A DNA stretch of 19,641 nucleotides. Origin: a virus. Lineage: Duplodnaviria; Heunggongvirae; Uroviricota; Caudoviricetes. The position numbers were made by a program, and so were the translations under genes. This document shows positions 1 to 18,581 of the stretch, piece after piece. The stretch's first letter is position 1; each line of letters starts with the position of its first letter. The notes beneath the pieces were generated by a model. It was not told the DNA's origin and made no database searches. It saw only the letters and a list, made by a program, of their open reading frames with translations. Location of the stretch: IMG/VR virus record IMGVR_UViG_2778261231_000016, positions 1 to 19,641 of that record. One strand, given 5' to 3'.

Positions 1-3000
1 ATGAACAGGACCAGTCCCTATTATTGTCGCCGCTCAGTACTTTCCTTATTGATATCTGCCTTGATATATGCCCCGCCCGGGATGGCTGCCTTCACTACTA
101 ATGTTATTGGTGTGGTAAACGATGAGACTGTAGATGGCAACCAAAAAGTGGATGAACGAGGTACAACAAATAACACTCATATTATCAACCATGGCCAGCA
201 GAATGTTCATGGCGGGGTATCTAATGGAAGTCTTATTGAATCTGGTGGATATCAAGATATAGGAAGTCATAACAATTTTGTGGGGCAGGCTAATAATACA
301 ACCATTAACGGTGGCAGACAGTCAATTCATGACGGGGGTATTTCCACAGGTACGACAATCGAGAGTGGCAATCAGGACGTTTATAAAGGGGGTATCAGCA
401 ATGGAACGACAATTAAGGGCGGTGCTTCACGCGTAGAGGGAGGGAGTGCGAATGGAATACTCATTGATGGTGGTAGCCAGATAGTAAAAGTTCAAGGGCA
501 TGCTGATGGTACAACGATAAATAAGTCTGGCTCTCAGGACGTAGTACAAGGAAGTCTGGCAACGAACACAACCATAAATGGTGGTCGACAGTATGTTGAA
601 CAGAGCACAGTAGAAACAACAACCATTAAAAATGGCGGTGAGCAAAGAGTATATGAGAGCCGTGCGCTGGACACGACGATTGAAGGCGGAACTCAGTCTC
701 TGAATAGTAAGTCAACGGCAAAAAATACGCATATCTATTCTGGTGGCACGCAAATTGTTGATAACACCAGCACCTCGGATGTTATTGAAGTTTATTCTGG
801 TGGCGTGCTTGATGTTAGTGGTGGTACGGCAACAAATGTTACCCAGCACGATGGTGCAATTTTAAAAACTAACACTAACGGTACGACGGTGAGCGGTACG
901 AATAGTGAAGGTGCATTCTCCATCCACAATCACGTGGCAGACAATGTGTTGCTGGAAAACGGTGGTCATTTAGACATAAACGCATATGGTTCGGCAAACA
1001 AGACGATTATTAAAGATAAAGGAACAATGTCAGTTTTAACCAATGCTAAAGCTGATGCGACCCGAATAGATAATGGCGGGGTTATGGATGTTGCAGGAAA
1101 CGCGACAAATACCATAATTAATGGTGGCACACAGAATATTAATAATTATGGCATAGCCACAGGCACCAATATCAACAGCGGAACGCAAAATATCAAAAGC
1201 GGCGGGAAAGCTGACACAACAATTATATCCTCCGGGAGCCGGCAGGTTGTTGAGAAAGATGGTACGGCAATTGGCAGCAATATTAGCGCCGGAGGCTCGC
1301 TGATTGTCTATACCGGCGGTATTGCACATGGGGTTAACCAGGAGACGGGCAGTGCTTTAGTTGCCAACACGGGTGCAGGGACTGATATCGAAGGATACAA
1401 CAAGCTCTCTCACTTCACTATTACCGGAGGGGAGGCTAATTATGTTGTGCTGGAAAATACCGGCGAACTGACGGTAGTGGCTAAAACCTCGGCGAAAAAT
1501 ACTACCATTGATACTGGCGGTAAGCTGATTGTCCAGAAGGAGGCTAAAACAGATAGCACCAGACTTAATAATGGCGGCGTTCTGGAGGTTCAGGACGGTG
1601 GTGAGGCTAAGCATGTTGAGCAACAATCCGGCGGCGCATTAATTGCTTCCACGACCTCCGGAACACTTATCGAAGGAACCAACAGTTATGGTGATGCTTT
1701 CTACATCAGGAATTCAGAAGCTAAAAATGTAGTGCTGGAAAACGCTGGCTCATTAACAGTCGTCACTGGTTCCCGCGCAGTTGACACGATTATTAATGCC
1801 AACGGCAAAATGGATGTTTATGGAAAAGATGTTGGCACTGTACTCAATAGTGCTGGCACCCAAACAATATATGCCAGTGCCACTTCTGATAAAGCAAATA
1901 TCAAAGGTGGCAAGCAAACGGTATATGGTTTAGCCACTGAAGCAAATATCGAAAGTGGTGAACAAATTGTTGATGGTGGGTCAACAGAGAAAACACACAT
2001 CAATGGTGGCACGCAAACCGTTCAGAATTATGGTAAGGCAATCAATACCGATATCGTCTCTGGCCTACAACAAATTATGGCAAACGGGACAGCGGAAGGT
2101 TCCATTATTAATGGGGGTTCACAGGTAGTTAATGAGGGCGGTCTGGCTGAAAACTCGGTGCTTAATGACGGCGGCACACTCGATGTGCGGGAGAAAGGCA
2201 GCGCAACGGGGATACAGCAGAGTAGCCAGGGCGCTTTGGTTGCAACCACCAGGGCGACGCGGGTCACAGGAACACGCGCGGATGGCGTCGCGTTCAGCAT
2301 CGAGCAGGGTGCGGCGAACAATATCCTGCTGGCAAATGGCGGCGTGTTAACCGTGGAGTCAGACACCTCTTCTGACAAAACACAGGTCAATATGGGCGGA
2401 CGGGAGATCGTCAAAACAAAAGCCACTGCGACAGGCACGACGCTCACCGGCGGTGAACAAATTGTCGAGGGTGTGGCGAATGAGACAACAATTAACGACG
2501 GCGGAATACAAACAGTTTCAGCTAACGGAGAGGCAATAAAAACAAAGATCAATGAAGGCGGTACGCTGACAGTCAACGATAATGGCAAAGCGACAGATAT
2601 CGTCCAGAACAGCGGTGCCGCTCTCCAGACGAGCACGGCTAACGGTATTGAAATCAGCGGTACTCACCAGTACGGTACTTTTTCCATTTCCGGCAATTTA
2701 GCGACCAATATGTTGCTGGAAAATGGCGGTAATTTATTGGTATTAGCAGGTACCGAAGCTCGCGACTCCACGGTTGGCAAGGGGGGGGCAATGCAAAACC
2801 TGGGTCAGGACTCCGCCACAAAGGTTAACTCTGGCGGGCAATATACCCTTGGGCGGTCAAAAGATGAGTTTCAGGCTCTGGCCCGGGCAGAAGATCTCCA
2901 GGTCGCTGGCGGTACGGCAATCGTCTACGCAGGTACGCTGGCGGATGCATCGGTCAGTGGCGCGACAGGAAGCCTGTCGTTAATGACGCCACGGGATAAT

Positions 3001-4581
3001 GTTACGCCAGTTAAACTCGAAGGGGCGGTCCGGATTACCGATAGCGCGACATTGACTCTGGGAAATGGCGTCGATACCACGCTTGCCGACCTGACGGCTG
3101 CCAGCCGGGGCAGTGTCTGGCTTAACAGCAATAATTCCTGTGCAGGTACCAGCAACTGCGAATATAGAGTAAACAGTTTGCTACTCAACGACGGTGATGT
3201 TTATTTGTCAGCACAAACAGCAGCGCCTGCCACAACTAACGGTATCTACAATACGCTGACAACCAATGAACTTTCCGGTAGCGGTAATTTCTACCTGCAT
3301 ACCAACGTTGCAGGCTCCCGGGGCGATCAACTGGTCGTCAACAACAACGCCACTGGTAATTTTAAAATCTTTGTTCAGGATACCGGCGTCAGCCCACAGT
3401 CTGACGACGCGATGACGCTGGTGAAAACAGGGGGAGGGGATGCTTCGTTTACGCTGGGCAATACCGGCGGTTTCGTTGATCTTGGGACCTATGAGTATGT
3501 CCTGAAAAGTGACGGCAACAGCAACTGGAACCTGACCAATGATGTCAAACCCAACCCGGACCCCATCCCAAATCCAAAGCCAGACCCAAAACCCGATCCA
3601 AAGCCAGACCCAAATCCAAAACCAGACCCTACTCCCGATCCAACGCCGACACCCGTTCCGGAGAAACGCATTACGCCTTCTACGGCAGCCGTACTCAATA
3701 TGGCAGCAACATTACCGTTGGTATTTGATGCTGAGCTAAACAGTATTCGCGAGCGGTTGAACATAATGAAAGCGAGTCCACACAACAATAATGTCTGGGG
3801 GGCGACGTATAACACCCGTAATAATGTCACCACCGATGCGGGTGCCGGGTTTGAGCAGACGCTGACCGGAATGACAGTGGGGATCGACAGCCGTAATGAT
3901 ATTCCTGAAGGAATTACCACGCTAGGCGCTTTTATGGGCTATTCCCATTCACATATCGGTTTTGATCGCGGAGGACATGGCAGTGTGGGCAGTTATTCTC
4001 TGGGCGGCTATGCCAGTTGGGAACATGAAAGTGGTTTCTATCTGGACGGTGTCGTGAAGCTGAACCGTTTTAAAAGTAACGTAGCAGGTAAAATGAGCAG
4101 CGGTGGAGCCGCCAATGGCAGTTACCACAGCAACGGGCTGGGCGGTCACATTGAAACCGGGATGCGATTTACCGATGGTAACTGGAACCTGACGCCGTAT
4201 GCATCGTTAACGGGGTTCACCGCTGATAACCCCGAATATCATTTATCCAATGGCATGAAATCGAAATCAGTCGATACCCGCAGTATATATCGTGAACTGG
4301 GCGCAACGCTGAGTTACAACATGCGTCTGGGGAACGGTATGGAAGTTGAGCCGTGGCTGAAGGCGGCTGTGCGCAAAGAATTTGTCGATGATAACCGGGT
4401 GAAAGTGAATAGTGACGGTAATTTCGTCAATTATTTGTCGGGCAGACGTGGAATATACCAGGCAGGTATTAAAGCCTCATTCAGCAGTACGTTAAGCGGG
4501 CATCTTGGGGTGGGGTATAGCCATAGTGCCGGTGTGGAATCCCCGTGGAACGCGGTAGCTGGTGTGAACTGGTCGTTCTGA
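1..4581 (+). CDS. ypjA: AIDA-I/Ag43-type autotransporter adhesin (YpjA-like), 1526 aa
   Basis: Seen: ATG at 1; N-terminal signal-like segment MNRTSPYYCRRSVLSLLISALIYAPPGMAAF; long passenger of degenerate ~19-aa beta-helix repeats (GGxQxVxxGGxAxxTxIxxGG); Pro-rich PNPDPIPNPKPDPKPDP linker; C-terminal beta-barrel translocator ending in aromatic ...GVNWSF. Symbol from memory of the E. coli K-12 smpB-ssrA neighbourhood and the 1526-aa length; not verified by search. Confidence 0.85.
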   Translation: MNRTSPYYCRRSVLSLLISALIYAPPGMAAFTTNVIGVVNDETVDGNQKVDERGTTNNTHIINHGQQNVHGGVSNGSLIESGGYQDIGSHNNFVGQANNTTINGGRQSIHDGGISTGTTIESGNQDVYKGGISNGTTIKGGASRVEGGSANGILIDGGSQIVKVQGHADGTTINKSGSQDVVQGSLATNTTINGGRQYVEQSTVETTTIKNGGEQRVYESRALDTTIEGGTQSLNSKSTAKNTHIYSGGTQIVDNTSTSDVIEVYSGGVLDVSGGTATNVTQHDGAILKTNTNGTTVSGTNSEGAFSIHNHVADNVLLENGGHLDINAYGSANKTIIKDKGTMSVLTNAKADATRIDNGGVMDVAGNATNTIINGGTQNINNYGIATGTNINSGTQNIKSGGKADTTIISSGSRQVVEKDGTAIGSNISAGGSLIVYTGGIAHGVNQETGSALVANTGAGTDIEGYNKLSHFTITGGEANYVVLENTGELTVVAKTSAKNTTIDTGGKLIVQKEAKTDSTRLNNGGVLEVQDGGEAKHVEQQSGGALIASTTSGTLIEGTNSYGDAFYIRNSEAKNVVLENAGSLTVVTGSRAVDTIINANGKMDVYGKDVGTVLNSAGTQTIYASATSDKANIKGGKQTVYGLATEANIESGEQIVDGGSTEKTHINGGTQTVQNYGKAINTDIVSGLQQIMANGTAEGSIINGGSQVVNEGGLAENSVLNDGGTLDVREKGSATGIQQSSQGALVATTRATRVTGTRADGVAFSIEQGAANNILLANGGVLTVESDTSSDKTQVNMGGREIVKTKATATGTTLTGGEQIVEGVANETTINDGGIQTVSANGEAIKTKINEGGTLTVNDNGKATDIVQNSGAALQTSTANGIEISGTHQYGTFSISGNLATNMLLENGGNLLVLAGTEARDSTVGKGGAMQNLGQDSATKVNSGGQYTLGRSKDEFQALARAEDLQVAGGTAIVYAGTLADASVSGATGSLSLMTPRDNVTPVKLEGAVRITDSATLTLGNGVDTTLADLTAASRGSVWLNSNNSCAGTSNCEYRVNSLLLNDGDVYLSAQTAAPATTNGIYNTLTTNELSGSGNFYLHTNVAGSRGDQLVVNNNATGNFKIFVQDTGVSPQSDDAMTLVKTGGGDASFTLGNTGGFVDLGTYEYVLKSDGNSNWNLTNDVKPNPDPIPNPKPDPKPDPKPDPNPKPDPTPDPTPTPVPEKRITPSTAAVLNMAATLPLVFDAELNSIRERLNIMKASPHNNNVWGATYNTRNNVTTDAGAGFEQTLTGMTVGIDSRNDIPEGITTLGAFMGYSHSHIGFDRGGHGSVGSYSLGGYASWEHESGFYLDGVVKLNRFKSNVAGKMSSGGAANGSYHSNGLGGHIETGMRFTDGNWNLTPYASLTGFTADNPEYHLSNGMKSKSVDTRSIYRELGATLSYNMRLGNGMEVEPWLKAAVRKEFVDDNRVKVNSDGNFVNYLSGRRGIYQAGIKASFSSTLSGHLGVGYSHSAGVESPWNAVAGVNWSF
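3551..3660 (+). repeat. Imperfect 24-bp tandem repeats encoding the Pro-rich (P-x-P-K-P-D) linker of the autotransporter
   Basis: Seen: CCAAAGCCAGACCCAAA occurs at 3574-3590 and again at 3598-3614 (24-nt period) within a run of CCA/CCC/CCG-rich codons translating to PNPDPIPNPKPDPKPDPKPDPNPKPDPTPDPTPTP. Confidence 0.75.
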
Positions 4582-4592
4582 CCATCAACGAA

Positions 4593-4614
4593 AAAGCCCA
4601 CATCTGTGGGCTTT
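4593..4614 (+). terminator. Stem-loop downstream of the autotransporter stop (AAAGCCC-loop-GGGCTTT)
   Basis: Seen: inverted repeat AAAGCCCACA / TGTGGGCTTT starting 12 nt after the TGA at 4579-4581. The following T-tract is weak (TTTCATGTT), so intrinsic-terminator function is uncertain. Confidence 0.45.
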
Positions 4615-4741
4615 CATGTTACCAGGAGCCGCGGCTCCTTTGCGTATCCTTTTATGTCTCCTCACCGTCTGGTCGGTGTTTTGCTGAGACTTCTAACTTC
4701 CTGTTTTTGTTGGTGTTGTCCTTACACCGTCCAATCATGAT

Positions 4742-4785
4742 TGGTGGGCTGGCGGGAGTTGAACCCGCGTCCGAAATTCCTACAT
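4742..4785. repeat. att direct repeat: second copy of the ssrA 3' end (island boundary distal to ssrA)
   Basis: Seen: TGGTGGGCTGGCGGGAGTTGAACCCGCGTCCGAAATTCCTACAT at 4742-4785 matches 18582-18626 (the 3' end of ssrA, minus-strand gene) apart from a single missing A after TGGTGG. Identity stops after CCTACAT on both copies. Confidence 0.9.
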
Positions 4786-4980
4786 ACCATTTTTATTATA
4801 GTAAAAACAGTAGATTATGTTTGAAAACAATGTGTTAGTGTTATTTTGTATTTGCTCGTCTTACGCGTTTTTAATGCTCTGCCGCCAAAGTGCCGCCATT
4901 ACATCAAGCATCTAGAATAAAATTAGTTAATAAATTATAATTAATATGCTAATTGTTCTTGCATTCATAAGTGGGACGTG

Positions 4981-6714
4981 ATGAAAGAAAAAAAATTCGT
5001 TAGTGAGCTTTTCCTTGAAAATGGGCAGTTTATTTTAGTCGGTTTGACAGGTCGAACTGGTTCTGGTTGCACAACAACAGCTAATATTCTTGAAAACGAA
5101 AAAACAGTCTTCCCTGATGTAAGTAAATTACAGGGGTTTTACAAGGGATTGGATGTCCATCGTTATAATATAGTTAAAAAATTCGCAGAAAATCACTGGG
5201 AAAATTTTTACTCAATTAAGGTGAGTGACCTAATCTCAGCGTATCTTCTGATGTTAACAGTTGAGGAAGCTTCTGAATTCATTCTATCATCTAATAAATT
5301 TATCAGTAAAGGGCATTTAGATATTGTATTAACTTTTGGTGTATTCTCAGATAATCTCATTTTGACAAGATTTAAAAATGTAATTGAGAATTTGCTTGAT
5401 CATAATAGTGAATTGAAGCTTGATGAAAAAACGATTAATAAATTTATATCAATTTTGAAGTTAGTTAGAAAATTTACTAAAGAATTCAAAGCTGAACTAA
5501 ATGAGATAAACTCAAATTTATATGTTTCAGCCTATCAGTTAGCAGGTAAGTCAATTAGACGTCGTGGGCGTATTGAAGTCGATTTTGAAGATAAAGAGTT
5601 TATGCCTAAATCTGTTTTTCATTTGCCGGAAACTATTAATAGGGTTATTAAATTAATAAGAAAAAGCAAAAGAGATAACGCATTAATTGTCATAGATGCT
5701 ATTAGAAATCCATATGAGGCAAAATTTTTTAAGGATAGATATTCTGCATTTCATTTAATGTCAATAAATGCCCCAGATGAACATCGAACAAACTATTTGC
5801 GGAAACTACATAAGTTTTCAGAAAAGCAGATAGAGGAAATAGATTCTGTAGAGTCAGGTAAAGGTGATAACTCTTACAAACATCTCACCAATCCAAATGT
5901 AACTAAATGTATTGAACTATCAGATATACACATTTTTAACCCAAAAAATGAATTTGATAATGATAATATTTTAAAAGCACAATTAGCGTGGTACATCGCA
6001 CTGATGAAGCATCCTGGTCTGATAACACCTACTGCAATGGAAAGGGTTATGCAAGTTGCGTATACGGTAAAATTAAACTCTGGCTGTATATCTAGACAGG
6101 TGGGAGCTGTAGTAACTGATGGTGATAATTCAATAAAATCAGTTGGTTGGAATGATGTTGCCAACGGTCAGATTCCTTGCTCTATGAGATCTCTAGATGG
6201 CCTAATGAACGATTTTGATGAAAAAACGTACAGTCATTATGAGAGAAATAATAGTTCTTTCAGAATTAAAGCTAATGAGAAACTCTTAAATTTTAGGGCG
6301 ATAGATAAAACTGGTGATATTTATAGAGGCAGGAACTTATCTTATTGTTTTAAAGATATACATAATGATCTTGATAAAGAGAAAAAAGGTAATCAAGTTC
6401 ATACACGTGCATTACATGCTGAGGAAAACGCATTTTTACAACTTGCAAAATATGGTGGTATTGGCGTTCTTGGGGGGAAGTTGTATACAACTGCCAGTCC
6501 CTGTGAGTTGTGTGCGAAAAAAGCTTATCAGTTAGGTATATCTGAAATTGTATTTATTGATCCCTACCCAGGTATAGCTCAAGACCATATTATTAATATA
6601 GGTAGTAAGCCACCAAAGTTAATACAATTTAGAGGCGCAATTGGGAAGTCATATCACCGACTTTATGAGCAAATTATCCCGATAAAAGATGAGTTAGAAT
6701 ATCTCCTTGAGTAG
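4981..6714 (+). CDS. P-loop nucleotide-kinase-like domain fused to cytidine/dCMP-deaminase domain; AvcD/DcdV-like antiphage nucleotide-depletion enzyme (577 aa from ATG 4981; GTG at 4978 is an alternative start)
   Basis: Seen: P-loop G-L-T-G-R-T-G-S-G-C-T-T at 5041-5076 with Cys where the Walker-A Lys is expected; deaminase zinc motifs H-A-E at 6415-6423 and P-C-E-L-C at 6499-6513; very AT-rich compared with flanking phage genes. Established: this two-domain architecture is characteristic of AvcD/DcdV and the dCTP-deaminase defence proteins. Family assignment is from motif recognition only. Confidence 0.7.
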   Translation: MKEKKFVSELFLENGQFILVGLTGRTGSGCTTTANILENEKTVFPDVSKLQGFYKGLDVHRYNIVKKFAENHWENFYSIKVSDLISAYLLMLTVEEASEFILSSNKFISKGHLDIVLTFGVFSDNLILTRFKNVIENLLDHNSELKLDEKTINKFISILKLVRKFTKEFKAELNEINSNLYVSAYQLAGKSIRRRGRIEVDFEDKEFMPKSVFHLPETINRVIKLIRKSKRDNALIVIDAIRNPYEAKFFKDRYSAFHLMSINAPDEHRTNYLRKLHKFSEKQIEEIDSVESGKGDNSYKHLTNPNVTKCIELSDIHIFNPKNEFDNDNILKAQLAWYIALMKHPGLITPTAMERVMQVAYTVKLNSGCISRQVGAVVTDGDNSIKSVGWNDVANGQIPCSMRSLDGLMNDFDEKTYSHYERNNSSFRIKANEKLLNFRAIDKTGDIYRGRNLSYCFKDIHNDLDKEKKGNQVHTRALHAEENAFLQLAKYGGIGVLGGKLYTTASPCELCAKKAYQLGISEIVFIDPYPGIAQDHIINIGSKPPKLIQFRGAIGKSYHRLYEQIIPIKDELEYLLE

Positions 6715-6745
6715 AAATATTATACTCATCCTTCCTGAGGTAAGC

Positions 6746-6779
6746 TTCAAGATGATCAATAAATATTGATCATCTTGAA
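6746..6779. repeat. Perfect 15-bp inverted repeat with 4-nt loop (TTCAAGATGATCAAT aaat ATTGATCATCTTGAA)
   Basis: Seen directly, 32 nt downstream of the deaminase-fusion stop. Contains two GATC sites. No T-tract follows on either strand, so it is not a canonical intrinsic terminator. Confidence 0.8.
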
Positions 6780-7095
6780 AGTTAATTGCAGAGTCAAACT
6801 AGTAGTCAGACTGAAGCTTCGATAAAAAATGTTTTTGTTTTTTTTCATTTTCTAATGACTGTTTTTTATTGGTTTCTTTTTAATGTTGCAATGCTATGCT
6901 TTTCTACTATTTTTGAATGTGGCATCTTTGATGTTTTTATACAACAAAGATGAGGGCCTATAGGTTTTTTTGTGATGTAAAAATTATCTTATTCTATAAA
7001 TAAAACCTAAACTCAGTCTGAAGAGTTAAATGAGAATGGATAACCTGCTGAATATTATATTTGTAAATAGTTTGAGTTTGTTTTCATAAGTTACT

Positions 7096-8112
7096 CTATC
7101 TTAAGTTGCATAAAGGGTTTTTAGTTACCGCATCTTCAAGGTGATCGGGCGAAAAGTGGGCGTAAATCATCGTCATTTTTATATCGGCATGGCCCAGAAT
7201 ATCGCGCAGCACCAGTATGTTTCCGCCATTCATCATAAAATGGCTGGCGAATGTATGACGTAGCACGTGAGTGCATTGGCCCTCTGGCAGCTCGATGCCA
7301 GCTCGCTTTACTGCTCGTTCAAAGGCTTTTCTGCACGGGGTGAATAGCTTCCCTCTGTTCTTGGGGAGTTCGTCATACAGATCTTGAGATATCGGCACGG
7401 TGCGGTTTTTCTTACCCTTCGTCTTGGTATAAGTGATGCGGTATTTAGATAACTGATGGCCCTGCAGGTTTTCAGCTTCACTCCAGCGTGCGCCGGTGGC
7501 CAGGCATATTTTTGCAATCAAAAGCAGACTGGGGTTTTGAGAATCAGCGCAGGCATCTAGCAGACGTTTAATTTCTTCCGAGGTCAGGAACGCCAGTTCC
7601 CCCTCAGCGATTTTAAATGTTGGCAGCCCGGCGAGAGGATTTGGTGCTGACCAGTGGCCTAGTTTTTTCAATGTGCCGAAAACCGATGATAGGTTACGTT
7701 GCTCAAGATTCACCGTGCGTGGTTTTACTGGCGACATTAGTGTGCCGTCTTCGTTACGAACGTCACCTTTTAACCGTGCTTCGCGGTATTTCGTAAAGTC
7801 ACCGGCTGTCAGTTCTGAGGCGATGGGGTCGCCTAGACCATTACAGATAATTCTAAGTTTCGCCATGAGGCGCTTGGGGTCTGCGAGTGTCTGACCATAC
7901 AGGGAATACCAAAGCTCAATTAATTCTGATAGGCGTCGCCGATCATCCTTTTCACCCAACCACGGTTTTTTATTCACTTCTTCCATTGTGAAGCTTTCAA
8001 AAGCAATGGCTTCGCCTTTCGTAGCAAATTGCTTACGCACGCGCTTACCATTGCGTCCATTGGGATAGCACTCACACAACCATTTTCCGTTCGGCTGTTT
8101 TCTGATGGTCAT
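7096..8112 (-). CDS. int: P2/186-type tyrosine integrase (338 aa)
   Basis: Seen: N-terminus MTIRKQPNGKWLCECYPNGRNGKRVRKQF resembles the P2 Int N-terminus; C-terminal catalytic region has ...ATGARWSEA..., HVLRHTFASHF and ...IYAHF (tyrosine recombinase R/H-x-x-R/Y signature). Start abuts the cI stop. Confidence 0.95.
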   Translation of the reverse strand: MTIRKQPNGKWLCECYPNGRNGKRVRKQFATKGEAIAFESFTMEEVNKKPWLGEKDDRRRLSELIELWYSLYGQTLADPKRLMAKLRIICNGLGDPIASELTAGDFTKYREARLKGDVRNEDGTLMSPVKPRTVNLEQRNLSSVFGTLKKLGHWSAPNPLAGLPTFKIAEGELAFLTSEEIKRLLDACADSQNPSLLLIAKICLATGARWSEAENLQGHQLSKYRITYTKTKGKKNRTVPISQDLYDELPKNRGKLFTPCRKAFERAVKRAGIELPEGQCTHVLRHTFASHFMMNGGNILVLRDILGHADIKMTMIYAHFSPDHLEDAVTKNPLCNLR

Positions 8113-8113
8113 A

Positions 8114-8746
8114 TCAAAGGCTCTTAATGATTTTCAGTGCGCGGCCTACTACCTCAATGTCATCTAGGCCACATTCAAACGATGAATCATCCTGATGCAC
8201 TACTAATTTGTTTCCCGGAAGTCGAGTCAATTTAACAATGCTTTTTATCCCGTCAATATCGACTAACCACATACCATTTACTGGTGGTGTTTGGTTGCGA
8301 TCTATTAAATAAGAATCACCAGAAGTAGTCACCAGCAGTAGGTTGCTTGAGTCTGAGGGGAGTATGCTGCTATCAATGATTGCTTTTCCAGCATCGACCA
8401 ATAAACCACCGTTGAGAGTCGCCTTGTCAATTTCAGGAGATACTAGTTTAGAAAGAGGTACAACCTTGCTGGAGTTCACGGAATTGATATTTTTTTTAGG
8501 TTCAATGTTTGGACCTGGCTCCCCCTGTCCGGTGGTTAGCCACAGTAAAGAAACTCCTGTTTCCAAGGCGCACTGAATCACCCACTCTGCAGGAAAACTA
8601 TCTCTTAAGTATCTGTTTGCCATGGTGCTTTTTGATGCGCCTAAGTGATCGCAAAGTTGCTGTCTGGACTTGAAATCATAGGCTGCCATTAGTCTATGGA
8701 TAGCCTCTCTTCCCCCTGTATTCTCTCCAACCTTTACCTGTATCAT
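8114..8746 (-). CDS. cI: CI-type immunity repressor (186 CI-like, 210 aa)
   Basis: Seen: position immediately upstream of int on the same strand; HTH-like N-terminal region (KSRQQLCDHLGASKSTMANRYLRD); RBS AGGA 7 nt before ATG at 8746; faces an operator-containing intergenic region. Homology judged by eye. Confidence 0.8.
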   Translation of the reverse strand: MIQVKVGENTGGREAIHRLMAAYDFKSRQQLCDHLGASKSTMANRYLRDSFPAEWVIQCALETGVSLLWLTTGQGEPGPNIEPKKNINSVNSSKVVPLSKLVSPEIDKATLNGGLLVDAGKAIIDSSILPSDSSNLLLVTTSGDSYLIDRNQTPPVNGMWLVDIDGIKSIVKLTRLPGNKLVVHQDDSSFECGLDDIEVVGRALKIIKSL

Positions 8747-8758
8747 TTTTTAATCCTG

Positions 8759-8810
8759 TTGACGTATCAAATATTGGATCGTAGTATCTCGATGTATCAA
8801 ATATTGAATC
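8759..8810 (+). promoter_or_regulatory. Rightward lytic-type sigma70 promoter overlapping duplicated 17-bp operator-like repeats
   Basis: Seen: -35 TTGACG (8759-8764), 17-bp spacer, -10 TAGTAT (8782-8787). Direct repeats GTATCAAATATTGGATC (8764-8780) and GTATCAAATATTGAATC (8794-8810) lie 30 bp apart centre to centre, the first occupying the promoter spacer. Also tandem ATAAAACGA at 8813-8821 and 8823-8831. Confidence 0.55.
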
Positions 8811-8865
8811 AAATAAAACGAGATAAAACGACGTAAACCAAACCTTAATCGGGAGATACTGCACT

Positions 8866-9108
8866 ATGAGCACTGATATTTCAATTCGTGTACCAAAAGA
8901 GATGGCTACGCCTGCAGAGTTCGCGGAATGGGAAGGTATCTCCCGCGGCTCTGTGTATCAAAAAATTCATCATGGTCAGCTTGCTAAATACATGGTCAAG
9001 AAAGAAAAAAACAAAGGCCGCGTAAGCCTGCGTTATTTAATGTACAAAACCGATCAGGTCCGTGAATCCCTCGGTCATTCCAACTTCCGCGTCATTGTTG
9101 GTAAGTAA
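8866..9108 (+). CDS. Small HTH protein in the apl/cox position (putative excisionase / lytic-switch regulator, 80 aa)
   Basis: Seen: first gene downstream of the rightward promoter and divergent from cI; excisionase-like HTH segment TPAEFAEWEGISRGSVYQKIHHGQL; RBS GGGAGA upstream. Assignment by position and motif only. Confidence 0.45.
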   Translation: MSTDISIRVPKEMATPAEFAEWEGISRGSVYQKIHHGQLAKYMVKKEKNKGRVSLRYLMYKTDQVRESLGHSNFRVIVGK

Positions 9109-9140
9109 GTTCAATTATGAGAACTTTCTAAGGGGGTAGC

Positions 9141-9485
9141 ATGTTTGATTATAAGATTTCCAAACACCCGCATTTTGATGAAGCCTGTAGAGCTTTTGCA
9201 CTTCGTCACAATATGGCGAAGCTGGCAGAACGTTCAGGAATGAATGTCCAGACTCTGCGAAACAAACTCAACCCAGATCAACCGCATCAGCTCAATGCGC
9301 CAGATATCTGGCTACTTACCGATCTGACGGAAGATTCAACGCTGGTAGACGGTTTTCTGGCACAGATTCACTGCCTGCCATGTGTACCGATTAATGAGGT
9401 GGCAAAAGAGAAACTGCCACATTACGTCATGAGTGCAACCGCAGAGATCGGGCGTGTTGCTGCAGGTGCGGTACCGGTTTTCTAA
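9141..9485 (+). CDS. cII: Phage CII-family regulatory protein, apparently C-terminally truncated (114 aa)
   Basis: Seen: RBS AAGGGGG before ATG; N-terminal region MFDYKISKHPHFDEACRAFALRHNMAKLAERSGMNVQTLRNKLNP matches my recollection of 186-type CII proteins. Those are ~165-170 aa by memory, and here the ORF stops right at the junction with the tail-fibre stub. Confidence 0.65.
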   Translation: MFDYKISKHPHFDEACRAFALRHNMAKLAERSGMNVQTLRNKLNPDQPHQLNAPDIWLLTDLTEDSTLVDGFLAQIHCLPCVPINEVAKEKLPHYVMSATAEIGRVAAGAVPVF

Positions 9486-9871
9486 AATATAACGGAGCGT
9501 CATTCAACAAGGCAATGTATCCCAAACTTGCACAAATTTTCCCGTCAGGAGTATTACTTGATTTGCGCGGCGTATTTATTCGAGGCTGGGATGATGGAAA
9601 AGGGATTGATGCCGGGCGTGCAATACTGACACAGCAGCAGGATGCCCAGCAAAATATCACCGGCATGGTTTCTGATATGACAGTCGGCGTAAATGCTGAC
9701 GGAACAGGTGCATTTAGTATGGTCGATTTAACTACATCAGGCATTTCGGCAGGTGCACTAAATTCTTTTTATCAAAAGCATATTTATCTGGATTCCTCCA
9801 GAGTGGTCAGAACGGCAACTGAAAACCGTCCGGTAAATATCGCATTCAACTACATTGTGAGGGCTGCATAA
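9486..9871 (+). pseudogene. Tail-fibre (H-like) C-terminal remnant, 5'-truncated
   Basis: Seen: frame is open from just after the cII stop; translation contains the tail-fibre collar-like motif ...NGASFNKAMYPKLAQIF...LRGVFIRGWDDGKGIDAGRA...; no N-terminal fibre domain or proper start; stop overlaps the G start (TAATG at 9869-9873). Confidence 0.65.
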
Positions 9872-10458
9872 TGATGAACGCAGATTTAGCCATTTTAGAG
9901 AACGGTATTGCGACAACCGCCGGATGGATAACGATATATAACTATTCGGCGGTTACAGGTGAATATCTTGACAGCAACAGTGAATACATTCCAGAAGGTG
10001 TTGGATTGCCTGCGCTGGCAACAGATATTGAACCGCCGAACAGACCGGACGGTCAGGCTGTTATCTGGCAGGGTTCGTGGATACTGATGGATGACTGGCG
10101 GGGTGAAACGGTTTATTCCATTTTTGATGGTTCTGCCAGTATCGTGGATTACCTCGGGGCAATCGCAGAGGGATATACACAACAGAAACCCGCAACCCGT
10201 TTTGATAAATGGGATGGTAAGCAGTGGGTGACTGATACTGACGCGCGAAATACGGAAGCTGTTGCAGTTTCTACGCAACAGAAAGCTGCATTGCTGGCTG
10301 AAGCCACCGCGACCATAGCACCGCTTCAGGATGCAAAAGACGGAGGTTATATTGATGATGCTGATATTCCGATGTTGATTTCTTGGCAAAAATATCGCTA
10401 CGCGCTGACTAAAGTTAATCCTAAAACTCCTGTTTGGCCCAGCAAACCAAGTGTATAA
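9871..10458 (+). CDS. Tail-fibre assembly protein (P2 G-like, 195 aa)
   Basis: Seen: start overlaps the upstream fibre stop as in P2 H/G; 195-aa product in the expected position before the G-FI accessory slot. Similarity to gpG-type chaperones judged by eye. Confidence 0.8.
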   Translation: MMNADLAILENGIATTAGWITIYNYSAVTGEYLDSNSEYIPEGVGLPALATDIEPPNRPDGQAVIWQGSWILMDDWRGETVYSIFDGSASIVDYLGAIAEGYTQQKPATRFDKWDGKQWVTDTDARNTEAVAVSTQQKAALLAEATATIAPLQDAKDGGYIDDADIPMLISWQKYRYALTKVNPKTPVWPSKPSV

Positions 10459-10470
10459 ATGGTAATATAA

Positions 10471-10505
10471 AAGGCAGTTCACTCTATGATGAACTGCCTT
10501 TTATA
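10471..10505. terminator. Bidirectional stem-loop between convergent G and the 110-aa cargo ORF
   Basis: Seen: AAGGCAGTTCA (10471-10481), 8-nt loop, TGAACTGCCTT (10490-10500), followed by TTTAT on the plus strand and TTATATT on the minus strand. Confidence 0.6.
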
Positions 10506-10524
10506 ACGAGCATCAAAATATAGA

Positions 10525-10857
10525 TTATTTACCAAACAAAGAAACTATGTTGACTGCGACTGTGGTGATATCAGTCGCAGGTTTTAGCCATTTACTGATT
10601 TCATACTTGTCAAGGATTGAAGGGTACTCACTTGCTTCAACTGTTTTCAATTGATGTGCCGCTTGATTAATGTTTTCAAGTGGCGCGCCGGGAATGAAAT
10701 TTTCTTCTAGAAAGCTTTTTTGGCTTTCATATATTGATATCGCCTCGCCATTTCCAGAAAAAGTAGTTTCTTTAAAAACTAACTCTGTACACTCTGGTGC
10801 TCGAACTCCAATCGTATTATTAATAAAAGTACAACCCTCGAAAGTATGCTTACCCAT
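10525..10857 (-). CDS. Hypothetical protein (110 aa), AT-rich cargo in the G-FI (P2 Z/fun-equivalent) slot
   Basis: Seen: ATG at 10855-10857, stop followed by the stem-loop above; opposite orientation to all flanking late genes; markedly lower GC than neighbours; no recognisable motif, no signal peptide or obvious TM segment. Confidence 0.6.
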   Translation of the reverse strand: MGKHTFEGCTFINNTIGVRAPECTELVFKETTFSGNGEAISIYESQKSFLEENFIPGAPLENINQAAHQLKTVEASEYPSILDKYEISKWLKPATDITTVAVNIVSLFGK

Positions 10858-11032
10858 TTTTAGATTTTACCTTGGTTGCGTAGTGAAACCATTAGTTTAC
10901 ATCTTTCACCAGTAGCAATAAAAATGATGGTTAAGAATTGAGACGAGTATCACTGAACTATACATGCTGACCAAAGGAACCTTTCAAAGAATTTAAATGC
11001 GCTGCTAACGATCATTTTTCGTCAATATCAAT

Positions 11033-11050
11033 TGTGCTATTTCCCACACA
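11033..11050 (+). promoter_or_regulatory. Candidate Ogr-dependent late-promoter element (TGT-N12-ACA) upstream of the FI operon
   Basis: Seen: TGTGCTATTTCCCACACA at 11033-11050, ~75 nt upstream of the FI ATG. Established: P2 late promoters carry a TGT-N12-ACA dyad centred near -55 recognised by Ogr. Single motif match, so moderate confidence. Confidence 0.45.
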
Positions 11051-11124
11051 TAGCCCACTACGTGCGCCGCGTGCATATCAACCAGAACATAGGCACACCC
11101 CCTGTAAACCGGAGAGACTGCCTT

Positions 11125-12297
11125 ATGGCTCAGGATTACCACCACGGGGTGCGCGTTGTTGAAATCAACGAGGGCACCCGATCCATTACCACGGTGAGCA
11201 CCGCCATCGTGGGCATGGTCTGCACCGGCGATGATGCTGATGCGTCCATGTTTCCCCTCAATAAGCCGGTCCTGCTGACCGATGTGCTGACTGCCAGCGG
11301 TAAAGCGGGCGAGTCCGGCACGCTGGCCCGTTCGCTGGATGCGATTGCAGACCAGGCTAAACCCGTGACCGTCGTTGTGCGCGTGGCACAGGGCGAAACC
11401 GAAGCGGAAACAACCTCCAACATTATCGGCGGCGTAACTGCTGACGGTAAAAAAACGGGTATGAAAGCGCTGCTTTCGGCGCAGTCGCAGTTGGGCGTCA
11501 AGCCGCGCATTCTCGGCGTGCCGGGGCATGACACGCAAGCGGTTGCCACTGAGCTGCTGAGCGTGGCGCAGAGCCTGCGCGGGTTTGCCTACCTGTCCGC
11601 TTATGGCTGCAAAACGGTAGAAGAAGCGATTGCCTACCGTGACAATTTCAGCCAGCGCGAGGGGATGCTGATCTGGCCTGACTTCATCAACTTTGACACC
11701 GTGCTGAATGCCGACGCGACGGCTTACGCCTCCGCCCGTGCGCTCGGCCTGCGCGCCAAAATTGACGAGCAGACCGGCTGGCACAAAACCCTGTCCAACG
11801 TGGGCGTGAACGGCGTTACCGGCATTTCCGCTGATGTGTTCTGGGATCTGCAGGACCCGGCAACCGATGCGGGACTACTGAACCAGAACGACGTCACCAC
11901 GCTTATCCGCAAAGATGGCTTCCGCTTCTGGGGTTCCCGCTGCCTCAGTGACGATCCTCTGTTTGCCTTTGAGAACTACACCCGCACGGCGCAGGTGCTG
12001 GCTGACACCATCGCAGAAGCGCACATGTGGGCGGTGGATGGCGTACTCAACCCGTCGCTGGCCCGTGACATTATCGAAGGTATTCGGGCCAAGCTGTGCA
12101 GCCTGAAAACACAGGGCTACATCATCGGCGCAGACTGCTGGCTGGATGAGTCGGTGAACGATAAAGACTCCCTGAAAGCCGGGAAACTCACTATCGACTA
12201 CGACTACACGCCGGTGCCGCCGCTTGAAAACCTGATGCTGCGCCAGCGCATCACCGATCAGTACCTGCTGGATTTCTCCAGCCAGGTCAGCGCGTAA
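11125..12297 (+). CDS. Contractile tail sheath protein (P2 FI homologue, 390 aa)
   Basis: Seen: RBS GGAGAG 8 nt upstream; N-terminus [35 protein letters not shown] closely matches P2 FI (MSDYHHGVQVLEINEGTR...). The ORF-track start at 11032 is an upstream in-frame extension I do not believe. Confidence 0.95.
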
Positions 12298-12306
12298 GGG
12301 GACACC

Positions 12307-12822
12307 ATGGCTTTACCACGCAAGTTAAAACACCTGAACCTGTTCAACGACGGGAACAACTGGCAGGGGATCGTTGAGTCTCTGACCCTGCCGAAATTCA
12401 CCCGCAAGTTTGAGAAGTATCGCGGCGGCGGTATGCCGGGCGCGGTGGACGTGGACATGGGGCTGGATGACGGCGCACTGGACACGGAATTTTCAATCGG
12501 CGGCACCGAACTGCTGTTATTTAAGCAGATGGGCAAGGCCACGGTTGACGGAATCCAGCTGCGTTTCACCGGCTCCATTCAGCGTGACGATACCGGCGAA
12601 GTGCAGGCCGTTGAGCTGGTTGTGCGCGGGCGTCATAAAGAAGTGGATTCCGGCGAGTGGAAAACCGGCGAGAGCAGCACCACCAAAGTCAGCAGCACCA
12701 ACAGCTACGCGAAGCTGACCATTAACGGCGAAGTGCTCTATGAGGTCGATCTGGTCAACATGGTTGAAATCGTTGACGGCGTGGACCTGATGGAAGAACA
12801 CCGTAACGCCCTCGGCCTCTGA
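12307..12822 (+). CDS. Tail tube protein (P2 FII homologue, 171 aa)
   Basis: Seen: immediately follows FI with RBS AAGGGG; size and position as P2 FII. Confidence 0.93.
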   Translation: MALPRKLKHLNLFNDGNNWQGIVESLTLPKFTRKFEKYRGGGMPGAVDVDMGLDDGALDTEFSIGGTELLLFKQMGKATVDGIQLRFTGSIQRDDTGEVQAVELVVRGRHKEVDSGEWKTGESSTTKVSSTNSYAKLTINGEVLYEVDLVNMVEIVDGVDLMEEHRNALGL

Positions 12823-12876
12823 TTAACCTTAACGGCGCGGGAAGCCGCGCCAGTATTTCATTAACAGGAAACGAAC

Positions 12877-13179
12877 ATGAGCGACAAGCTGACTGAAAAG
12901 ACCGTAAAACTGGATACCCCCATCATGCGCGGTAAAACTGAAATTACCGAAATTGTGCTGCGCAAGCCGCAGTCCGGCGCACTGCGTGGCACCCGTCTGC
13001 AGGCCATTATGGATATGGACGTGGGCGCGATGATGACTGTGATCCCGCGAATCTCCACTCCGACGCTGACCGCGCAGGAAATGGCAGAGCTGGACCCCGC
13101 CGATCTGACAGCAATGGCTGTAGAGGTGGTGACTTTTTTGTTGCCGAAGTCGGTGCTTGCCGATTTGCCGACAACCTGA
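12877..13179 (+). CDS. Tail assembly chaperone (P2 E homologue, zero-frame product, 100 aa)
   Basis: Seen: RBS AGGAAA; position between the tube and tape-measure genes; contains the slippery heptamer TTTTTTG (13135-13141) near its 3' end. Confidence 0.85.
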   Translation: MSDKLTEKTVKLDTPIMRGKTEITEIVLRKPQSGALRGTRLQAIMDMDVGAMMTVIPRISTPTLTAQEMAELDPADLTAMAVEVVTFLLPKSVLADLPTT

Positions 13180-13313
13180 CGGTTGATGATCTGGTGGCAG
13201 ATATTGCCACCATCTTTCACTGGTCGCCGTCCATCACTGACGTTATGCCGCTGACTGAGGTGCTGGAATGGCGGCATAAGGCAATTCAGCGAAGCGGGGC
13301 CAGCGATGAGTGA
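12877..13313 (+). CDS. E+E' fusion made by programmed -1 frameshift at TTTTTTG (about 13135-13141); E' frame ends at TGA 13311-13313
   Basis: Seen: the -1 frame after the slippery site is open to 13313 and overlaps the tape-measure start (13306). Established: the P2 FETUD operon makes E+E' by -1 frameshifting at this kind of site. The exact shift codon is not determinable by eye. Confidence 0.65.
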
Positions 13314-16083
13314 TAATAACCTGCGTCTGCAGGTGGTTTTGGGGGCGGTTGACAAGTTAACCCGCCCTTTTAAAAATGCCCAGGCTGGCTCAAAAGAGCT
13401 GGCAGCGGCAATCCGGCAGACCCGCGACCAGCTTAAGCAACTGAGCGATGCGGGAGGCCAGTTAAAATCCTTCGACCAGCTATCGCAAAGCGTGCGCCGT
13501 ACAGGTGCAGAGCTGGATCAGACGAGACTGCGCGCGCAGATGATGACGCGCGAAATGTCATCTTTGGAATCCCCAACAAAAAAACAAACTCAGGCGCTTG
13601 AAGCTCAGTGGCGTGCTGTTGCACGTCTTGAGCAAAAGCAGAAACAGGAAACAAACCAGCTATCTGCAGTAAGGGGGGAGCTTTACAGGCTGGGGTTATC
13701 TGCTGGGGGCGGAGCGCGGGAAACCGCCAGAATTACCCGTGAAACTGAGAAGTATAACCAGAAGCTGGCAGAGCAGGAGCGCAGGCTGCGCGAGGTTGGC
13801 GAGCGTCAGCGAAAGCTCAACGCTATCAAAGCCAAGGCTGAAAAGACCCGTGAGTTAAGGAACTCTCTGGCAGGTAATGGTGCAGGGGAGATGGCGGCTG
13901 GGGTAGCTACTGGCATGACGTTATTGGCTCCAGTAAAAGCCTATTCTGAATCTGAAAATGCCGCTAATCAGCTCGCCGGTTCAATGATGGGGCCGGGCGG
14001 AAAGGTCGCACCTGAATTTGAGAAAATTAACCAGCTGGCGGTAGCGCTTGGAGACAGGCTGCCGGGAACCACTGCAGATTTCCAGAACATGATGACAATG
14101 CTGCGTCGTCAGGGGATGTCAGCACAGGTCATTCTTGGCGGGCTGGGGGAATCGGCGGCTTATCTGGGGGTGCAGTTGCAGATGGCTCCCACTGCTGCGG
14201 CTGAGTTTGCCGCAAAATTGCAGGATGCAACACAGACCTCAGAAAAAGACATGATGAGCCTGATGGATCTGATCCAGAAGGGTTTTTATGCCGGTGTTGA
14301 CTCAGGGAATATGCTGCAGGGATTTTCTAATATCAGCAGCGCCATGAGCATTATTAATCAAAAAGGGATTGAAGCAGCTAAAACTTTTGCTCCGTTGCTG
14401 GTGATGGCTGATCAGAGCGGGATGGCTGGTGAGTCTGCAGGTAATGCTTACCGAAAAATTTTCCAGGCAGCGCTGGATTCAAAAAATATTCAGTCAGTCA
14501 ACGACGATCTGAAAGGCACCGGTATCAACTTCAATTTTTCCAATGGTAAAGGTGGATTCGGCGGGCTGGAAAATATGTACGCCCAGCTGGAAAAGCTTAG
14601 TAAGCTCAACGATGAAACCCGGATGGCAACGATTAAGGATCTGTTCGGTAATGATGCGGAAGTCATGAAAGTCCTTAACACCATGATTGAAAAAGGTATT
14701 AATGGATATCGTGAAACTACCGCCAAACTTGAAAATCAGGCTTCACTGCGGGAACGCGTCGATGCGTCCCTGAATACCCTGGGTAATAAATGGGAAGCCG
14801 CTACAGGTTCCTTTACCAATGCTATGGCTAGTATCGGTGAAACAGTTGCCCCAACATTAAAGAAGCTGGCTGACTGGTTGGGTGAACTGGCTTCGCGTCT
14901 GGATGGTTTTGTTAAACGACACCCACAATTGACCTCAGCGCTGTTTAAGCTGGCAGCTGGCTTTGCCATTGTTGCCACCGCCGCTGGGGTTGTTTCACTG
15001 GCGCTGGCGTCCGTGTTAGGGCCGATGGCAGTAGTGCGAATGAGCGCAGGGGTGATGGAGCTAAAATTTTCATCTGCATTTGGTCTTATTGGGAAAGCAA
15101 TCAGTTCTGTTGGCAAGTCAGTTATATGGCTGGGCCGATTGATGTTTGCAAATCCTATACTGGCTGTCATTGGGCTGATCGCCGCTGGTGCTATTTATAT
15201 CTGGCAGAACTGGGACACGCTTGGACCAAAATTCAAGGCAATGTGGGATGCCGTATGTAATGCCACAAGTACGGCATGGGATTGGATTAAAGAGAAGGCC
15301 AGCGCCGCATGGGAGGGGATTAAGTCACTGTTCTTTAATTATACCTTGCCGGGATTAATAGCTAAAAATTGGGATGCAATAAAAACTGGCGTTTCTGAAG
15401 CGTGGGCCAATATCAGACAATCTATTAGTGATAAATGGAATTCGATCCTGGCTGATGTTGCCGCGCTTCCTGCGAAGTTTCAGGACATGGGCAGCGCCAT
15501 TATTGACAGCATTCTCGATGGAATTAATGCCAAATGGGAGACACTCAAAAGCAAGCTTTCCTCAGTCACAGATTATCTGCCTGACTGGATGACCGGAAAT
15601 AATAAAACACAAGACAAAGCACAGGTGCAGGTGGTTGGTGGAGCAGCGGCTGCTGCCGTTCCGTTTGCCGGGATGTATGACAGTGGTGGGATTATTCCGC
15701 GCGGTCAGTTCGGTATTGTTGGAGAGAACGGCCCTGAAATTGTGAACGGCCCCGCAAATGTGACCAGCAGGCGGCGCACTGCCGCGCTGGCTTCCGTCGT
15801 TGCAGGTGTCATGGGCGTAGCGGCAGCGCCTGCAGAGGCTGCTCCACTACATCCTTACAGTCTGCCTACTGTGGCATATAAACAAAGCCAGCCTGCGAAA
15901 TCTGCCAGCGCGCCGCCAGTGATGCACTTTGAAACTCACGCGCCGATCACTATCTATGCTCAGCCAGGGCAGAGTGCACATGATATTGCCCGTGAAGTTG
16001 CCCGACAGCTTGACGAACGCGAGCGCAAGACCAGGGCTAAAGCACGCAGTAATTTCAGTGATCAAGGGGGATATGAATCATGA
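13306..16083 (+). CDS. Tail tape measure protein (P2 T homologue, 925 aa)
   Basis: Seen: long coiled-coil-rich N-terminal half (Q/E/R/K/A-rich), hydrophobic central segments; located between E/E' and U; stop overlaps the U start. Confidence 0.95.
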   Translation: MSDNNLRLQVVLGAVDKLTRPFKNAQAGSKELAAAIRQTRDQLKQLSDAGGQLKSFDQLSQSVRRTGAELDQTRLRAQMMTREMSSLESPTKKQTQALEAQWRAVARLEQKQKQETNQLSAVRGELYRLGLSAGGGARETARITRETEKYNQKLAEQERRLREVGERQRKLNAIKAKAEKTRELRNSLAGNGAGEMAAGVATGMTLLAPVKAYSESENAANQLAGSMMGPGGKVAPEFEKINQLAVALGDRLPGTTADFQNMMTMLRRQGMSAQVILGGLGESAAYLGVQLQMAPTAAAEFAAKLQDATQTSEKDMMSLMDLIQKGFYAGVDSGNMLQGFSNISSAMSIINQKGIEAAKTFAPLLVMADQSGMAGESAGNAYRKIFQAALDSKNIQSVNDDLKGTGINFNFSNGKGGFGGLENMYAQLEKLSKLNDETRMATIKDLFGNDAEVMKVLNTMIEKGINGYRETTAKLENQASLRERVDASLNTLGNKWEAATGSFTNAMASIGETVAPTLKKLADWLGELASRLDGFVKRHPQLTSALFKLAAGFAIVATAAGVVSLALASVLGPMAVVRMSAGVMELKFSSAFGLIGKAISSVGKSVIWLGRLMFANPILAVIGLIAAGAIYIWQNWDTLGPKFKAMWDAVCNATSTAWDWIKEKASAAWEGIKSLFFNYTLPGLIAKNWDAIKTGVSEAWANIRQSISDKWNSILADVAALPAKFQDMGSAIIDSILDGINAKWETLKSKLSSVTDYLPDWMTGNNKTQDKAQVQVVGGAAAAAVPFAGMYDSGGIIPRGQFGIVGENGPEIVNGPANVTSRRRTAALASVVAGVMGVAAAPAEAAPLHPYSLPTVAYKQSQPAKSASAPPVMHFETHAPITIYAQPGQSAHDIAREVARQLDERERKTRAKARSNFSDQGGYES

Positions 16084-17662: not shown

Positions 17663-17729
17663 ATAAGTTCTTAATATTGATTCTTTGTGTATCATTATTG
17701 AGATTTTAATGGTGACGGAGAATAAAAAA

Positions 17730-17948
17730 ATGATGAATTGCCCAAAGTGTGGACATGCGGCGCACACCCGGAGCAGCTTTCAGGTTACTGATAGCACGAA
17801 GGAGCGTTACTGCCAGTGCCAGAACATTAATTGCGGCAGCACATTTGTCACCCATGAAACGGTTGTACGATTTATCGTTACCCCGACAATAATCAATAAT
17901 GCCCCGCCGCACCCTACGCCGGGTGGTCAAGGGCACATGAATTTTTAA
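17730..17948 (+). CDS. ogr: Ogr late-gene transcriptional activator (C4 zinc finger, 72 aa)
   Basis: Seen: MMNCPKCGHAAHTRSSFQVTDSTKERYCQCQNINC... matches P2 Ogr (MFHCPLCQHAAHARTSRYITDTTKERYHQCQNVNC...) in length and Cys spacing; RBS GGAG 9 nt upstream of ATG 17730. The ORF-track start at 17685 is a TTG extension. Confidence 0.93.
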   Translation: MMNCPKCGHAAHTRSSFQVTDSTKERYCQCQNINCGSTFVTHETVVRFIVTPTIINNAPPHPTPGGQGHMNF

Positions 17949-17954
17949 AACAAG

Positions 17955-18579: not shown

Positions 18580-18581
18580 TT

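Follow-up and report, generated by a model that had tools for sequence, protein, structure and literature searches.

A probable 186-type lysis–lysogeny switch in a deleted P2-family prophage, with candidate CI operators 30 bp apart

What is encoded in the gap between the cI and apl genes of a P2-family prophage remnant, and could it still govern lysogeny in an element that has lost most of its genome? The window analysed here, a stretch of 19,641 nucleotides comprising positions 1 to 19,641 of IMG/VR record IMGVR_UViG_2778261231_000016, contains this interval at 8747–8865, which is the exact gap from the ATG of cI (8746, minus strand) to the ATG of apl (8866). The original prediction was of a 186-type switch, with a strong rightward promoter and duplicated 17-bp operator-like repeats. 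We compared the locus with 186, using as reference for its layout GenBank record NC_001317, which annotates pR, pL, CI sites, Apl sites, FL, FR and pE, and with 20 relatives drawn from phage records and GTDB genomes, which fall into four operator groups defined by the sequence of the pR spacer. We conclude, with good confidence, that the region is the lysis–lysogeny switch of a 186-type (SopEΦ/SEN8-like) P2-family prophage, in which CI, Apl and the state of the element are as modelled below.

The remnant is about 13.9 kb long and is bounded by a perfect 38-bp direct repeat at 4748–4785 and 18589–18626. This att repeat corresponds to the 3′ end of ssrA; the tmRNA gene lies at 18582–18944 and was the sole match in an Rfam search of the window; the element thus differs from 186, which integrates at a tRNA-Ile gene. 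Its neighbours are ypjA and smpB, in an E. coli-like arrangement. From left to right, the remnant carries a dCTP-deaminase cargo gene, int (7096–8112, minus strand), cI, apl, a truncated cII/tail-fibre fusion, tail genes, ogr/B and a second cargo ORF. int and cI are read leftward and apl and cII rightward from one short control region between them, an order common to 186, Fels-2, SEN8 and SopEΦ. Among complete phages, the nearest are Klebsiella Kp4845-2, Salmonella SEN8 and SopEΦ, Yersinia MLG42 and Fels-2, and E. coli 47-1826 carries an intact prophage with 99.8% identity to the window up to 9473–9474, where the window's deletion starts.

The deletion joins codon ~111 of cII to the middle or C-terminal part of the tail-fibre gene (region 9141–9871; junction 9474). 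The truncated cII (9141–9485, plus strand) encodes 114 residues compared with 169 in relatives, its homology stops at 9474, where the tail-fibre fragment is fused to it, and its match to PF06892 covers only positions 1–110 of 146. The lack of an intact CII reflects damage to the window's copy and does not bear on the family assignment. Rightward of cII the early region is gone, and with it fil and the replication, dam, tum, head, lysis and baseplate genes; what remains is tail genes, ogr and cargo ORFs. Both the truncation of cII and the loss of tum set this copy apart from 186. A search of 5,426 complete E. coli genomes did not recover the deletion junction (0/5,426), which suggests that the remnant is young and that its integrity reflects recency rather than selection.

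No LexA-controlled Tum antirepressor was found among the remaining ORFs of the remnant, and deletion of the Tum-type antirepressor region would make self-induction impossible. The window likewise contains no relevant LexA boxes. LexA-like sites with at most one mismatch number 10 against 6.4 expected, and the window's only perfect CTGT-N8-ACAG lies inside the deaminase ORF, at 6084–6099, where it probably arose by chance.

Three genes of the remnant occupy positions typical of cargo or morons. The 578-aa anti-phage dCTP deaminase gene (4978–6714, plus strand) lies between attL and int, matches the PADLOC dCTPase family at 9e-146 and has a domain of the cytidine/dCMP deaminase type; in the intact prophage of E. 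coli 47-1826 the same gene, so annotated, occupies the same place, as cargo in the gap between att and int. A 189-aa cargo ORF (17975–18544, minus strand) between ogr/B and attR, the slot filled by sopE in SopEΦ, weakly matches the candidate defence family PDC-S48 (6e-7). A 110-aa orphan ORF (10525–10857, minus strand) lies between the tail-fibre assembly and sheath genes on the opposite strand, a position of the P2 Z/fun moron type, and has no match in PADLOC.

The immunity repressor gene cI (8114–8746, minus strand) is intact and encodes 210 residues. Its product matches PF07022 (5.6e-31) and PF16452 (5.4e-28), the N-terminal helix-turn-helix and C-terminal oligomerization domains that together make up 186 CI, and matches the 186 CI crystal structures in PDB entries 2FJR (1.6e-27) and 2FKD (7e-14). 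There was no match to Peptidase_S24 in CI, the C-terminal domain being PF16452, and the protein is thus unlike the LexA-like, self-cleaving CI of the lambda type. Identity to 186 CI is 33%. The length of the protein is the same as in SopEΦ, SEN8 and Fels-2, and the linker between its two domains is about 17–18 residues longer than in 186 CI. In the literature we found no binding, transcript, immunity or operator experiments for this Fels-2/SopEΦ-type group of CI proteins.

We then located the early lytic promoter. pR (8759–8787, plus strand) consists of a −35 hexamer TTGACG at 8759–8764, a 17-bp spacer and a −10 hexamer TAGTAT at 8782–8787, with a predicted start near 8794. A promoter scanner gave it a score of 9/12, which alone is not above chance, as four promoter-like sites occurred in 1.6 kb against 2.9 expected. 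Its position is that of the annotated 186 pR, 13 bp from the cI ATG compared with 15 bp in 186, and both hexamers and the 17-bp spacing are kept in the 20 relatives of the four operator groups. Across groups, column identity is 0.99 for the −35, 0.90 for the −10 and 0.79 for the spacer, whereas within the window's own group the spacer reaches 0.98. Conserved hexamers around a divergent spacer are what one would expect where an operator lies within a promoter, and we suggest that pR contains such an operator.

The candidate CI operator in the spacer, O2, is the 17-mer GTATCAAATATTGGATC at 8764–8780, with the core TCAAATATTGG at 8767–8777. It sits where the central 186 operator, ATCTCTCAATTGGGAGAT, sits, shows 98% column identity in the window's operator group and differs in groups B to D. 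A second candidate operator, O3 (GTATCAAATATTGAATC, 8794–8810), covers pR from +1 to +17 and has the core TCAAATATTGA followed by ATC. O2 and O3 are identical at 16 of 17 positions and lie 30 bp apart, start to start; in 2,000 shuffles of the 119-bp intergenic region no pair of 17-mers reached 16/17, the maximum being 15. The promoter hexamers, their 17-bp spacing, the 17-mer and its repeat 30 bp downstream had all been named in the original prediction, and each lies exactly, to the base, where it had been placed. The further claims of a 186-type switch between cI and apl, and of a CI operator over the lytic promoter, also held up: the CI domains, the identity of Apl, the position of pR and the operator in its spacer all agree with the former, and the first repeat, situated like the central 186 operator, is consistent with the latter.

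To define the constrained bases, we used 95 distinct 700-bp relatives from a scan of viral contigs for the promoter plus O2, a set that is conditioned on O2 and hence uninformative about O2 itself. In O3, the elements TCAA, TTGA and ATC are kept in 91–95 of the 95, whereas the centre and the three left-flank bases vary, the latter differing in about a third of the relatives; the distance between O2 and O3 is invariant at 30 bp. The unit under constraint therefore appears to be an imperfect inverted repeat, TCAA-N3-TTGR(ATC). This motif, without the ATC, has seven matches on the two strands of the window (five distinct sites, two of them palindromic) against 1.95 matches expected, and three of the five sites fall in the switch. 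We conclude that the 17-mers with a TCAA-N3-TTGR core are likely to be CI operators. The operators of 186 read ATCTC-N8-GAGAT or ATTCAC-N5-GTGAAT. In 186, three operators lie at pR two DNA turns apart (about 21 bp), in addition to FL and FR (PMC3675496); here there are instead two strong copies 30 bp apart, a spacing at odds with the two-turn phasing of the 186 wheel model.

Three other sequences were considered as CI sites and set aside. At a possible O1 over the cI start (8740–8756), the fixed bases are those of the start and Ile codons and the rest varies, so that conservation gives no support. A weak third copy of the 17-mer inside apl (8955–8971) has no TCAA-N3-TTGR core, and its variation in relatives follows codons only. 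The palindromic TTCAAACGATGAA at 8174 depends on a base that only the window has, relatives reading CTCA, and is attributed to chance. Separately, a GATC (Dam) site at 8777–8780, one base before the pR −10, is present in 19 of the 20 relatives and in all four operator groups, SopEΦ being without it. A DNA adenine methylase is among the genes of the intact E. coli 47-1826 prophage, and a methylation input to pR or to CI binding is possible.

Further evidence on the operator core comes from a site within cI. An FL-like distal operator core, TCAATGTTTGG, lies at 8502–8512, in codons of the CI linker and 265 bp to the left of O2. Its TCAA and TTG are kept in 92–95 of the 95 relatives, most of which read TCAATATTTGA, the reverse complement of the O3 core. 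Although the core falls within the most variable part of CI, its third-codon bases at 8510 and 8504 are 100% and 98% fixed, whereas those at 8507, 8501 and 8513 vary; third positions neighbouring the half-sites are 39–64% conserved, and only 14% of third positions in cI are conserved as highly as those of FL. Codon 79 specifies S, T, P or A in different relatives, yet is always xCA. No FL-like core was found in operator groups B to D. The FL-like site thus appears to be under constraint at the DNA level, and is the best independent support for the operator assignment.

On the other side of pR, a 20-bp inverted repeat, AAGTTCaattatgaGAACTT, lies at 9107–9126, just past the apl stop codon and in the same position as 186 FR. 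It shows almost no variation across 46 distinct relatives and all operator groups. Its half-site spacing is unlike that of 186 FR, and it contains a −10-like CATAAT on the minus strand, a candidate pE. Since the repeat is the same in groups with different operators, it may be the −10 of pE rather than a CI site; its role is ambiguous, and it may be pE, FR or both.

186 also has CI sites at the promoter of the late activator gene, ogr/B. In the window, this region (17663–17730) has a −10, TATCAT, assigned by homology with 186 pB, and an inverted repeat, GTTC-N8-GAtT, over the −35; its sequence is common to Fels-2 and SopEΦ despite their different pR spacers. A GTATCA at 17689 coincides with the −10 TATCAT assigned from 186 pB and offers no independent support for the 17-mer.

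The leftward promoter of cI had been left unplaced in the original prediction. We now assign pL to 8884–8856 (minus strand), by exact positional homology with 186 pL, with a −35 hexamer TTGAAA at 8884–8879, a 17-bp spacer, a −10 hexamer CAGTAT at 8861–8856 and a predicted start near 8849, for expression of cI and int in lysogeny. The offsets from the apl ATG are identical to those of the annotated 186 pL, with the −10 at −10 to −5 and the −35 at +13 to +18. In 19 tabulated sequences from the four operator groups, TTGAAA is invariant and the −10 is CAGTAT or CAATAT, which in the window agrees with the consensus at just three of six positions. pL overlaps the start of apl and faces pR, and the starts predicted near 8794 (plus strand) and 8849 (minus strand) would give a convergent overlap of about 55 bp, compared with about 63 bp when the same estimate is made from the annotated hexamers of 186. 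A leftward promoter-like match from 8770 to 8742 was rejected, because its start would fall inside cI and it cannot serve as the cI promoter.

The first gene downstream of pR, apl (8866–9108, plus strand), encodes an 80-aa Cox-like excisionase and repressor (phrog_575, 5e-28) with 30% identity to 186 Apl. The latter binds 6-bp direct repeats 10–11 bp apart, of which attP has five and the pR–pL interval seven, and binding requires three adjacent sites (PMC7498355). In the window, ATAAAACGA occurs twice with a 10-bp period, as ATAAAACGAG and ATAAAACGAC at 8813–8832, and the candidate Apl operators at 8814–8839 (plus strand) comprise TAAAAC at 8814, TAAAAC at 8824 and TAAACC at 8834 (GTAAACC from 8833), all in 10-bp phase; TGAATC at 8805 and TTAATC at 8845 are possible weaker flanking sites. 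This is the sole phased array of at least three TAAAAC-like sites in the 19.6-kb window, with 0.135 expected, and it is kept in all operator groups along with a conserved Apl N-terminus. The hexamer of 186 is about TTGGCA and occurs seven times, compared with three clear sites here.

A similar array of candidate excisionase sites was found in the att arm at 4838–4873 (minus strand), where AAAAAC, TAAGAC, AAATAC and TAACAC follow one another in exact 10-bp phase. It lies between the att core and two arm-type Int repeats of TGCCGCCA (TGCCGCCAaag and TGCCGCCAtta; 4880–4903), and is inverted relative to the array between pR and pL, as in the 186 sequence. A strict scan of the window for Apl arrays returned nothing at the att arm, where the array emerges when one or two mismatches per site are allowed. 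It is clearer in related loci: among 10 that reach the att arm, the second site is TAAAAC in eight, TAAAAA in one and TAAGAC in L032, the sequence of which does not differ from that of the window at this point. The tandem copies of ATAAAACGA are thus present as originally quoted, but they are best read as Apl sites and not as further CI operators. We conclude, with moderate confidence, that the TAAAAC repeats are Apl sites, distinct from the 17-mers.

The locus and 186 have in common a two-domain CI; the int–cI/apl–cII arrangement; a pR close to the cI start whose 17-bp spacer holds an inverted-repeat operator, in the window a candidate one; a pL at identical offsets from the apl ATG; and direct repeats one turn apart, found between pR and pL and, in the opposite orientation, in the att arm. 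A distal operator within cI, again a candidate in the window, and an inverted repeat that is conserved immediately past the apl stop are further parallels; FL and FR of 186 lie about 300 bp from pR.

From these gene identities, sequence elements, their conservation and the positional homology with 186, we predict the binding events, transcription starts and immunity phenotype as follows. CI expressed from pL would bind TCAA-N3-TTGR at O2, in the pR spacer, and at O3, over pR +1 to +17, and would thereby switch pR off. Because pR and pL converge over about 55 bp, repression of pR should also relieve interference on pL, so that expression of cI and int is sustained. The FL core in cI, 265 bp away, probably aids repression by looping, as FL does in 186. 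Apl, the first product of pR, would act through the TAAAAC repeats between the two starts to damp both promoters, and would also bind the similarly phased att-arm array to direct excision. With cII and the replication, head, lysis and baseplate genes gone, only the maintenance half of the circuit would be left, the likely effects of which are that pR is kept silent and that the host is immune to phages with the same operators.

The assignment of both 17-mers to CI has to be weighed against two other readings of the repeat. In one, the pR core (−35 plus spacer) underwent a 30-bp tandem duplication of which O3 is a decaying vestige rather than a working operator, and CI acts via the spacer site alone, perhaps aided by weaker, undefined sites. 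The repeat does reach 24 nt, at 79% identity, into a −35-like stretch in which GTTGACG aligns with CTCGATG, and the left-flank bases of O3 are not conserved, SopEΦ having AGTTCC in place of GTATCA. However, decay is hard to reconcile with the retention of the 14-bp O3 core TCAAnTrTTGAATC in 91–95 of the 95 distinct sequences at a constant distance from O2; moreover, a core of the O3 type recurs at FL, and the +1 to +17 position is well suited to blocking RNA polymerase. We regard this origin of O3 as unlikely. Alternatively, CI might read the 17-mers in the manner of P2-type C proteins, as a direct-repeat pair flanking the −10 rather than as two independent inverted-repeat dimer sites. [quoted passage not shown] The 17-mers are likewise direct repeats that bracket the −10, with centres 30 bp apart, and each is only an imperfect palindrome. 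Yet P2 has a C protein of about 100 residues, no cII and non-palindromic repeats of 8–10 bp, whereas the repressor here is a 210-aa CI of the 186 type, the conserved bases form the symmetric pair TCAA/TTGA, and the occurrence of the core in reverse complement at FL in most relatives fits a symmetric site. Reading of the pair in the P2 manner strikes us as very improbable, and we retain two inverted-repeat operators as the preferred interpretation.

If the elements are those of a 186-type switch, do they still work in this copy? Only three differences separate the switch from that of the intact E. coli 47-1826 prophage in 1,374 bases: a synonymous change in cI, the single amino-acid difference in CI, E100K in the linker, and A/G at 8813, just outside the first TAAAAC. 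None falls in a promoter hexamer, operator core or TAAAAC hexamer, and pL, pR, O2, O3 and FL are base-identical. The switch could nonetheless be inert in this strain, and confer no immunity, if there is too little CI, or if repression is made unstable by E100K or by the absence of cII and pE. cII is truncated, most of the element's genome has been lost, and the deletion junction, absent from all 5,426 complete E. coli genomes, is recent and so unexposed to selection. Against this, maintenance in 186 requires pL and CI but not CII (PMC3675496), and lysine at position 100 occurs naturally in Fels-2-type CI proteins. We consider an inert switch doubtful, although it is the most serious of the alternatives. 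Since maintenance in 186 has no need of CII and the elements are base-identical to those of the intact prophage, the maintenance circuit is intact in sequence. It is plausible that the switch still functions, and the remnant probably still blocks phages sharing its repressor sites. It may also still be excisable, as int, apl and both att sites are intact; excision is conceivable if CI is inactivated.

Which phages would share those sites? In SopEΦ, SEN8, vB_YpM_MLG42, Kp4845-2 and the E. coli 47-1826 prophage, the CI N-terminal domain is 97–99% identical to that of the window, and pR, pL, the TAAAAC array, the FL core and the ssrA att core are common to all. O2 is also the same in these five, bar single-base changes at the centre base in SEN8 and the last base in SopEΦ. 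The left half of O3 has diverged in SopEΦ, whereas in the window O3 is a near-perfect copy of O2, and the five are complete phages or prophages, whereas the window holds a remnant deleted from cII codon ~111 into the tail-fibre gene. These five and the window almost certainly form one immunity class, as judged by the sequences that they share. Fels-2 (Felsduovirus) resembles the window in architecture, Apl, TAAAAC repeats, pL, FR-like element, att site and pB region, but differs in its pR spacer, TATATAAAAAGTGATCT, and in its downstream site, TTCATGGTTTGAA, which lies about 25 bp from the spacer centre, and it has no FL core; its CI is 76% identical to that of the window in the N-terminal domain and 53% in the C-terminal domain. 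Fels-2 probably belongs to a different immunity class, even though its recognition helix is the same. Indeed, although their pR spacers differ, all four operator groups have one and the same predicted recognition helix (SKSTMANRYLRD), a finding which suggests that specificity is set elsewhere or that the groups cross-react.

The switch is an uncharacterised addition to the well-known 186-type family and leaves the understanding of how such switches work unchanged. One tentative possibility would reach further. The longer-linker CI subfamily may work via two operators three turns (30 bp) apart that bracket the −10, together with one distal site. If true, the repressor–DNA assembly would be geared differently from that of 186, with its three operators at two-turn phasing; it would amount to a naturally occurring variant of the 186 'wheel', its linker length and operator phasing having evolved together, and the Fels-2 group (~25 bp) would represent a third setting. 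In any case, the locus differs naturally from 186 in both spacing and linker, and so lends itself to tests of the 186 CI wheel model. The analysis also provides a base-level map of pR, pL, the CI operator core, the Apl hexamer and the distal site for an immunity class that is uncharacterised yet very common among the P2-family prophages of E. coli, Salmonella, Klebsiella, Citrobacter and Yersinia; a related module is present in about 1,230 of the 5,426 complete E. coli genomes. The map predicts the phages that the strain should exclude, and because a repressor circuit that appears intact is joined in the remnant by the gene for an anti-phage dCTP deaminase, protection of the host may persist.
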